A stretch of 1,342 bases of DNA, taken from NCBI RefSeq assembly GCF_003334815.1, contig NZ_QOWO01000099.1, one strand, 5' to 3'. This stretch comes from Escherichia coli (GTDB lineage Bacteria; Pseudomonadota; Gammaproteobacteria; Enterobacterales; Enterobacteriaceae). This document shows, piece after piece, positions 57 through 1,169 of this stretch. Every line of letters begins with the position of its first letter. Position 1 is the stretch's first letter. The notes under the pieces were generated by a model. That model saw only the letters and a list, made by a program, of their open reading frames with translations, made no database searches and had not been told where the DNA came from. The translations under genes were made by a program, and so were the position numbers.

Positions 57-1169
57 ATGAATTACTCTCACGATAACTGGTCAGCAATTCTGGCCCATAT
101 TGGTAAGCCCGAAGAACTGGATACTTCGGCACGTAATGCCGGGGCTCTAACCCGCCGCCGCGAAATTCGTGATGCTGCAACTCTGCTACGTCTGGGGCTG
201 GCTTACGGCCCCGGGGGGATGTCATTACGTGAAGTCACTGCATGGGCTCAGCTCCATGACGTTGCAACATTATCTGACGTGGCTCTCCTGAAGCGGCTGC
301 GGAATGCCGCCGACTGGTTTGGCATACTTGCCGCACAAACACTTGCTGTACGCGCCGCAGTTACGGGTTGTACAAGCGGAAAGAGATTGCGTCTTGTCGA
401 TGGAACAGCAATCAGTGCGCCCGGGGGCGGCAGCGCTGAATGGCGACTACATATGGGATATGATCCTCATACCTGTCAGTTCACTGATTTTGAGCTAACC
501 GACAGCAGAGACGCTGAACGGCTGGACCGATTTGCGCAAACGGCAGACGAGATACGCATTGCTGACCGGGGATTCGGTTCGCGTCCCGAATGTATCCGCT
601 CACTTGCTTTTGGAGAAGCTGATTATATCGTCCGGGTTCACTGGCGAGGATTGCGCTGGTTAACTGCAGAAGGAATGCGCTTTGACATGATGGGTTTTCT
701 GCGCGGGCTGGATTGCGGTAAGAACGGTGAAACCACTGTAATGATAGGCAATTCAGGTAATAAAAAAGCCGGAGCTCCCTTTCCGGCACGTCTCATTGCC
801 GTATCACTTCCTCCCGAAAAAGCATTAATCAGTAAAACCCGACTGCTCAGCGAGAATCGTCGAAAAGGACGAGTAGTTCAGGCGGAAACGCTGGAAGCAG
901 CGGGCCATGTGCTATTGCTAACATCATTACCGGAAGATGAATATTCAGCAGAGCAAGTGGCTGATTGTTACCGTCTGCGATGGCAAATTGAACTGGCTTT
1001 TAAGCGGCTCAAAAGTTTGCTGCACCTGGATGCTTTGCGTGCAAAGGAACCTGAACTCGCGAAAGCGTGGATATTTGCTAATCTACTCGCCGCATTTTTA
1101 ATTGACGACATAATCCAGCCATCGCTGGATTTCCCCCCCAGAAGTGCCGGATCCGAAAAGAAGAACTAA
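57..1169 (+). CDS. insL: IS186 transposase InsL (IS4-family DDE transposase), 370 aa
   Basis: Seen in sequence: uninterrupted ORF from ATG at 57 to TAA at 1167-1169; the ORF track opens 6 nt upstream at GTG 51, giving 372 aa. Catalytic residues read directly from codons: D at 399-401 (LVDGT), D at 564-566 (ADRGF, matching the D-x-G-F/Y pattern I recall for IS4-family transposases), E at 990-992 inside CYRLRWQIELAFKRLK, i.e. Y(969-971)-x2-R-x3-E-x6-K(1011-1013). The long spacer (~140 aa) between the second D and the E is typical of the IS4/Tn5 type. From memory: protein begins MNYSHDNWSAILAHIGKPEEL as in annotated E. coli InsL, so ATG 57 is the preferred start. No frameshift or premature stop. 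Confidence 0.88.
   Translation: MNYSHDNWSAILAHIGKPEELDTSARNAGALTRRREIRDAATLLRLGLAYGPGGMSLREVTAWAQLHDVATLSDVALLKRLRNAADWFGILAAQTLAVRAAVTGCTSGKRLRLVDGTAISAPGGGSAEWRLHMGYDPHTCQFTDFELTDSRDAERLDRFAQTADEIRIADRGFGSRPECIRSLAFGEADYIVRVHWRGLRWLTAEGMRFDMMGFLRGLDCGKNGETTVMIGNSGNKKAGAPFPARLIAVSLPPEKALISKTRLLSENRRKGRVVQAETLEAAGHVLLLTSLPEDEYSAEQVADCYRLRWQIELAFKRLKSLLHLDALRAKEPELAKAWIFANLLAAFLIDDIIQPSLDFPPRSAGSEKKN

Follow-up and report, generated by a model that had tools for sequence, protein, structure and literature searches.

Insertion sequences can be working elements or decayed remnants, and the question raised by this locus is to which of the two it belongs. The stretch of DNA analysed here (the window, 1342 nucleotides from Escherichia coli) had been described in an earlier note, from its letters only, as carrying an active transposase, with the DDE triad and the YREK signature undisrupted between perfect inverted repeats. 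As reported below, the window is almost certainly a complete and functional copy of IS186, a member of the IS4 family, whose gene insL encodes a 370-aa DDE transposase with the triad D115/D170/E312. Both IS186 and what it does are long known and textbook knowledge, and nothing is added here to the documentation of E. coli K-12. Among the insertion sequences of laboratory E. coli, IS186 ranks with the four most active, and it causes recurrent mutations of phenotypic importance, such as those in which the expression of the Lon protease is lost; spotting an intact copy is useful for annotation and for the prediction of strain stability.

Identity and Distribution of the Element

Compared with IS186A of E. 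coli K-12 MG1655, the window showed 0 differences (100% identity across all 1342 bases), and positions 2-1341 showed 0 differences from IS186B and IS186C of the same strain and from the copy of strain M217. All three IS186 copies of K-12 MG1655, therefore, have exactly the window sequence. In these copies (IS186A/B/C, insL1-3, also annotated as IS421) sequence, gene coordinates, inverted repeats, target motif and duplication are all the same as those described here, with no difference. The gene is the following:

57-1169, + strand: insL transposase gene, 370 aa plus stop, from the list of open reading frames, 100% identical to K-12

This is the sole long ORF of the window (51/57-1169, + strand) and runs without stop or frameshift, a single transposase ORF without frameshift being a character of the IS4 family (PMC2266710). 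RefSeq sets the start at ATG 57, which gives 370 aa, and an in-frame GTG at 51 would lengthen InsL by two residues; the coordinates of the RefSeq CDS (WP_001300563.1 / b0016 insL1) are the same as those of the ORF in the window.

The megablast search of 5426 complete E. coli genomes revealed IS186 matches at 8692 places in 2221 of them, on both chromosomes and plasmids, with a median of 3 and a maximum of 22 places per genome; the best copy was at least 99% identical in 2725 of the 2815 matching E. coli records. RefSeq is not uniform in naming the identical sequence (IS4-like): some genomes have 'IS186B family transposase', others 'IS421 family transposase'. In several strains an annotated IS1A transposase divides the match into two pieces, which together span 2119 bp, and some IS186 copies do carry an IS1 interruption.

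Predicted Catalytic Residues and Fold of InsL

When 1.84 billion representative proteins were searched exhaustively with HMMER, 5136 representatives related to InsL were identified (E up to 0.001). Conservation was evaluated by aligning 126 relatives of near-full length that share 30-47% identity with InsL. Only eight columns of this alignment are invariant (D115, E154, D170, R245, R308, W309, E312 and K319), and conservation is at least 90% at Y305, R193 and H132. The codons of these residues, with their places in the predicted structure and in the alignments to the Tn5 transposase described in the following section, are listed here:

399-401, + strand: D115 (GAT), predicted first catalytic aspartate; invariant in the 126 homologues, in strand 110-119, on Tn5 D97 in the extended hhalign alignment
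516-518, + strand: E154, invariant in the InsL family
564-566, + strand: D170 (GAC), predicted second catalytic aspartate (A-D-R-G-F); invariant, directly after strand 165-169, on Tn5 D188
633-635, + strand: R193, at least 90% conserved, aligned to Tn5 R210
789-791, + strand: R245, invariant in the InsL family
969-1013, + strand: YREK signature, Y305-x2-R308-x3-E312-x6-K319, read directly and aligned to Tn5 Y319/R322/E326/K333
969-971, + strand: Y305 (TAC), at least 90% conserved
978-980, + strand: R308 (CGA), invariant
990-992, + strand: E312 (GAA), predicted catalytic glutamate; invariant, on helix 309-322
1011-1013, + strand: K319 (AAA), invariant

The placement of the three catalytic codons in frame and without disruption, as claimed in the earlier note, was exact, with 399 being the first base of the D115 codon and the ORF uninterrupted; the same is true of the YREK motif at 969-1013, the K319 codon ending at 1013. 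In fact, residues 305-319 read YRLRWQIELAFKRLK, which fits Y-x2-R-x3-E-x6-K. The conservation of D115, D170 and E312 suggests that they form the metal-binding catalytic triad of InsL. A search of the literature found no published mutagenesis or biochemistry of the IS186 transposase, these three residues included.

The AlphaFold2 model of InsL, built from the 126-sequence alignment, had a mean pLDDT of 93.5 and a pTM of 0.90. In the model, D115 lies in the middle of strand 110-119, D170 directly after strand 165-169 and E312 on helix 309-322, and these are the canonical places in an RNase H-like DDE core. The predicted layout of the protein is as follows:

57-374, + strand: residues 1-106, N-terminal and all-helical; AlphaFold predicts six helices, and the pLDDT exceeds 94 across most of this part
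375-1100, + strand: DDE_Tnp_1 catalytic domain, residues 107-348; RNase H-like core with an inserted beta-rich subdomain (approximately residues 194-297)

No Pfam domain matched the N-terminal region (residues 1-106), which, by analogy with the layout of Tn5, is a putative domain for binding the ends of the element. At the C-terminus (1050-1166), the modelled InsL ends after one long helix, residues 332-357, and is devoid of a Tn5-like dimerisation domain. The predicted fold is Tn5-like, and the beta-rich insertion of the model (approximately 194-297), which precedes the catalytic helix, is like that of Tn5.

Comparison of InsL with the Tn5 Transposase

For the comparison with Tn5 we used the annotated IS50R copy on plasmid pO86A1, which is 99.8% identical to the Tn5 sequence, and a Tn5-family alignment of 55 sequences. 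The search of PDB sequences by phmmer with InsL as a single sequence did not reach Tn5 and gave a spurious match alone (1wty, E 0.27). Instead, the InsL-family profile matched the Tn5 transposase in the PDB with an E of 0.006-0.007 and set Y305/R308/W309/E312/K319 on Tn5 Y319/R322/W323/E326/K333; a second, weak stretch of the same alignment set D170 on Tn5 D188 and R193 on Tn5 R210. When hhalign was run with the InsL profile against the single Tn5 sequence, the YREK region only was aligned, with a probability of 44%, and the profile-profile comparison with the Tn5-family alignment reached a probability of 90% (E 1.5e-6) over InsL 164-334 and Tn5 182-348, with the same residue pairs.

The first aspartate was paired only when hhalign was forced past the confident region. 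In this extended alignment (mact 0.01 or global mode), RLVDGTAIS was laid on AIEDTTSLS, so that D115 fell on Tn5 D97, with low per-column confidence; at the same low confidence, H132 was set on Tn5 H127 and E154 on E161, itself an invariant position of the Tn5 family, and throughout the N-terminal extension the positions invariant in one family met those invariant in the other. D115 may be the counterpart of Tn5 D97; in support of this low-confidence match, D115 is invariant and lies centrally in the first strand of the predicted core. The correspondence with the catalytic D, D, E of Tn5, which the earlier note had anticipated, was obtained for D170 and E312, on D188 and E326 and together with the YREK signature, and for D115 in the low-confidence extension only.

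The roles of Tn5 Y319, R322, R210 and E326 have been described, and R210, Y319 and R322 form the so-called 'RYR' phosphate-binding triad (PMC2566895). On the basis of the alignment, Y305, R308 and K319, together with R193, would provide the DNA-phosphate contacts of the (R)YREK motif. Tn5 W298, which stacks on the flipped base, aligned with V285 (909-911), which is unconserved in the InsL family, and has no conserved counterpart in InsL.

Further differences separate the two proteins. InsL is only 13-16% identical to the Tn5/IS50 transposase (PDB 1MUH, 1MM8, 3ECP) and is about 106 residues shorter (370 vs 476 aa), and 54 residues lie between its first and second aspartates, compared with 90 in Tn5. 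The relatives of Tn5 carry PF14706 (N-terminal DNA-binding) and PF02281 (C-terminal dimerisation), while DDE_Tnp_1 is the sole Pfam match of InsL, which therefore lacks this pair of domains, a character of the IS50 (Tn5-like) subgroup.

Terminal Repeats and Target Sites

The inverted repeats, which the earlier note had called perfect, are so across 24 nt (1-24 vs 1318-1341). The comparison of the flanks of four copies set the boundaries of the element at CAT...ATG, and it was taken as 2-1340, 1339 bp in length; the outermost pair, 1 (C)/1341, may belong to the target duplication and not to the element. The repeats proper are:

2-24, + strand: left terminal inverted repeat, CATAAGCGCTAACTTAAGGGTTG; perfect repeat, with the CAT...ATG boundary from the flanks of four copies
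1318-1340, - strand: right terminal inverted repeat; perfect repeat, from the comparison of the flanks

Target duplications were examined in four copies, representing three chromosomal sites, as the M217 copy is the K-12 IS186C insertion again (nupC-pdeA) and not an independent event. With the element taken as 2-1340, the three K-12 copies are flanked by 10-bp direct repeats (GGATCACTCC, GGAGTAATCC and GGATAATTCC), a length to be read with the palindromic GC-rich target in mind, since each boundary could also be drawn one to three bases away, which would make the duplication 6 to 12 bp. The empty sites reconstructed from the three K-12 insertions (GGGGATCACTCCCC, GGGGAGTAATCCCC and GGGGATAATTCCCC) are all GGGG(N6)CCCC, and the published target motif of IS186 is 5'-GGGG(N6/N7)CCCC-3' (PMC5009759). 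No GGGG(N6)CCCC site was found within the element itself. The insertion shared by K-12 and M217 was examined at the following positions:

353-376 and 1717-1740 of locus L005: IS186C insertion between nupC and pdeA
1478-1501 and 2842-2865 of locus L001: the same insertion

Two of the three K-12 copies adjoin hok toxin genes: IS186A lies approximately 19 bp from hokC/mokC and IS186B approximately 18 bp from hokE, at GGGG(N6)CCCC sites (locus L002, 1533-1552; locus L004, 1089-1108; the same gap in locus L006, 39-58). As for IS186C, its target between nupC and pdeA reconstructs to AAAAAAGCCGGGGATAATTCCCCGGTTTTTTT, which resembles the hairpin of a bidirectional intrinsic terminator. Since the target motif amounts to a GC-rich stem, IS186 may often insert into terminators.

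Possible Expression Signals of insL

The two-hexamer consensus scan of the window revealed no sigma-70 promoter. Just inside the left inverted repeat, positions 37-45 (TGATATGAT) resemble an extended -10 element (TGnTATGAT), which would start transcription few bases before ATG 57 and produce a nearly leaderless mRNA. In addition, an imperfect inverted repeat (49-62 / 121-134) could form a 9-bp RNA stem (49-57 with 126-134) over both candidate starts, GTG 51 and ATG 57. The predicted fold of 40-140 has an energy of -26 kcal/mol and a z of -1.9, a weak statistic, as 7 of 200 shuffles fold equally well. By analogy with the fold-back inhibition of IS10, the stem at the start codon could restrict the translation of insL.

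Transposition of IS10 and IS50 is under the control of Dam methylation. The window contains only two GATC sites, at 462 and 1150, and IS186, unlike Tn5/IS50, has none at its ends or near the gene start; hence, a control of this kind is not apparent.

Family Membership and Activity

InsL was matched by Pfam DDE_Tnp_1 (PF01609) over residues 107-348 (model 2-200 of 200, E 3.6e-26) and by the NCBIfam IS4 model NF033592 with 133.3 bits, above the curated cut-off of 115; the profiles thus agree with the assignment made in the earlier note, and D115, D170 and E312 are without substitution in the family alignment. Since the DDE/YREK pattern comes with these two matches and accounts for five of the eight invariant columns, it goes beyond chance, and the reading of D, D, E and YREK as a fortuitous motif in an unrelated protein, refuted by the profile matches and by the invariance among the 126 homologues, has a probability close to nil; all that speaks for it is that the pattern was first picked out by eye. 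A different possibility is a place for InsL outside IS4 proper, in a family that was separated from it (IS701, IS1634 or ISH3). The weak partial matches of the IS1634 and IS701 NCBIfam models would speak for it, but these, like the other IS4 models, cover the C-terminal motif region only and remain far under their cut-offs (41.3 vs 100 for IS1634; 25.1, 17.2 and 15.7 vs 170, 250 and 150 for the IS701 models), while NF033592 passes its own. Moreover, in IS701, ISH3 and IS1634 part of the YREK signature is missing and the duplications are of 4-6 bp (PMC2266710), whereas InsL has the complete Y-(2)-R-(3)-E-(6)-K signature at 969-1013, and the duplication, when the element starts at CAT, is of approximately 10 bp, as in the IS4 family. 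D115, D170 and E312, in turn, give the DDE triad of the IS4 family in the conserved regions N2, N3 and C1. We consider the membership in a split-off family to be of negligible probability.

The intactness of a sequence by itself cannot prove activity, and a copy of IS4-family IS186 could be intact but silent, that is, unexpressed or inhibited, with an ORF surviving only through recent acquisition. The lack of a consensus sigma-70 promoter in the window and the stem 49-57/126-134, which could cover the start codon, would fit a silent copy, and identical copies carry no information on selection. On the other hand, the three K-12 copies are exactly the window sequence, and IS186 transposes in K-12: 68 new insertions, approximately 0.4e-4 per genome per generation, were reported in mutation-accumulation lines, at GGGG(N6/N7)CCCC sites (PMC5009759), and repeated, independent de novo insertions were found upstream of lon in MG1655 derivatives (PMC4618355). 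Because of this combination of identical copies and new insertions, at least one element of the window sequence must be expressed and active, and the silent copy is largely refuted as an explanation and very improbable. The window sequence is, therefore, that of an active element, and the view that it is functional rather than decayed was borne out.

Within the IS4 family, ISfinder presumably places IS186 in the IS231 subgroup. The end consensus of this subgroup, CAT-------AA--TAA (PMC2266710, Table 1), is fitted by CATAAGCGCTAACTTAAGGG, read directly, at 8 of 8 conserved bases, all of them within the 20 terminal bases of the element; the complete YREK signature is common to the subgroup and InsL, and the 10-bp duplication of IS186 falls inside the range of 10-12 bp (PMC2266710). 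At 1339 bp, IS186 is shorter than the typical 1450-5400 bp of the subgroup (PMC2266710). The paper that classifies the IS4 family (De Palmenaer et al. 2008, PMC2266710) names neither IS186 nor IS421 in its text or supplements, so that the placement in the IS231 subgroup follows from the end consensus only.

Proposed Mechanism of Transposition

By analogy with Tn5 and Tn10, InsL would bind the two 23-bp terminal inverted repeats, pair the ends and then cut the element out; insertion would occur by staggered strand transfer, preferably at GGGG(N6/7)CCCC sites, and produce the duplication of approximately 10 bp. That InsL belongs to the IS4 family and has the conserved residues Y, R and W suggests that this cut-and-paste transposition proceeds via a hairpin intermediate on the transposon end. 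Tn5 produces a 9-bp duplication at loosely defined sites, unlike IS186, whose duplication of approximately 10 bp arises at a specific GC-rich motif. As InsL is without the N- and C-terminal Pfam domains of Tn5 and its counterpart of W298 is unconserved, the details of synapsis and hairpin chemistry may differ between the two.

A bolder proposal, which we regard as rather unlikely, is that InsL is a minimal IS4-type transposase that pairs and opens its ends unlike Tn5, has a target-recognition surface absent from the solved DDE transposases and is held in check by the start-codon stem, limiting the translation of read-in transcripts. The absence of a dimerisation domain and of the base-stacking Trp, together with the short link between the two aspartates, is the reason why InsL may pair and open the ends differently. 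If this were true, the strict choice of GGGG(N6/7)CCCC, similar to the stem of a hairpin terminator, could stem from a novel target-recognition surface.

Other Features of the Window

The Rfam scan of the whole window found no RNA family with E up to 1, and the scan for terminator-like sites returned 2, compared with 1.4 expected by chance. On the antisense strand, a terminator-like hairpin followed by a T-run lies inside insL (768-787, - strand). Two further ORFs, both predicted only, are present in the window:

481-789, - strand: ORF of 102 aa, antisense to insL
1144-1332, + strand: ORF of 62 aa, overlapping the right end of the element
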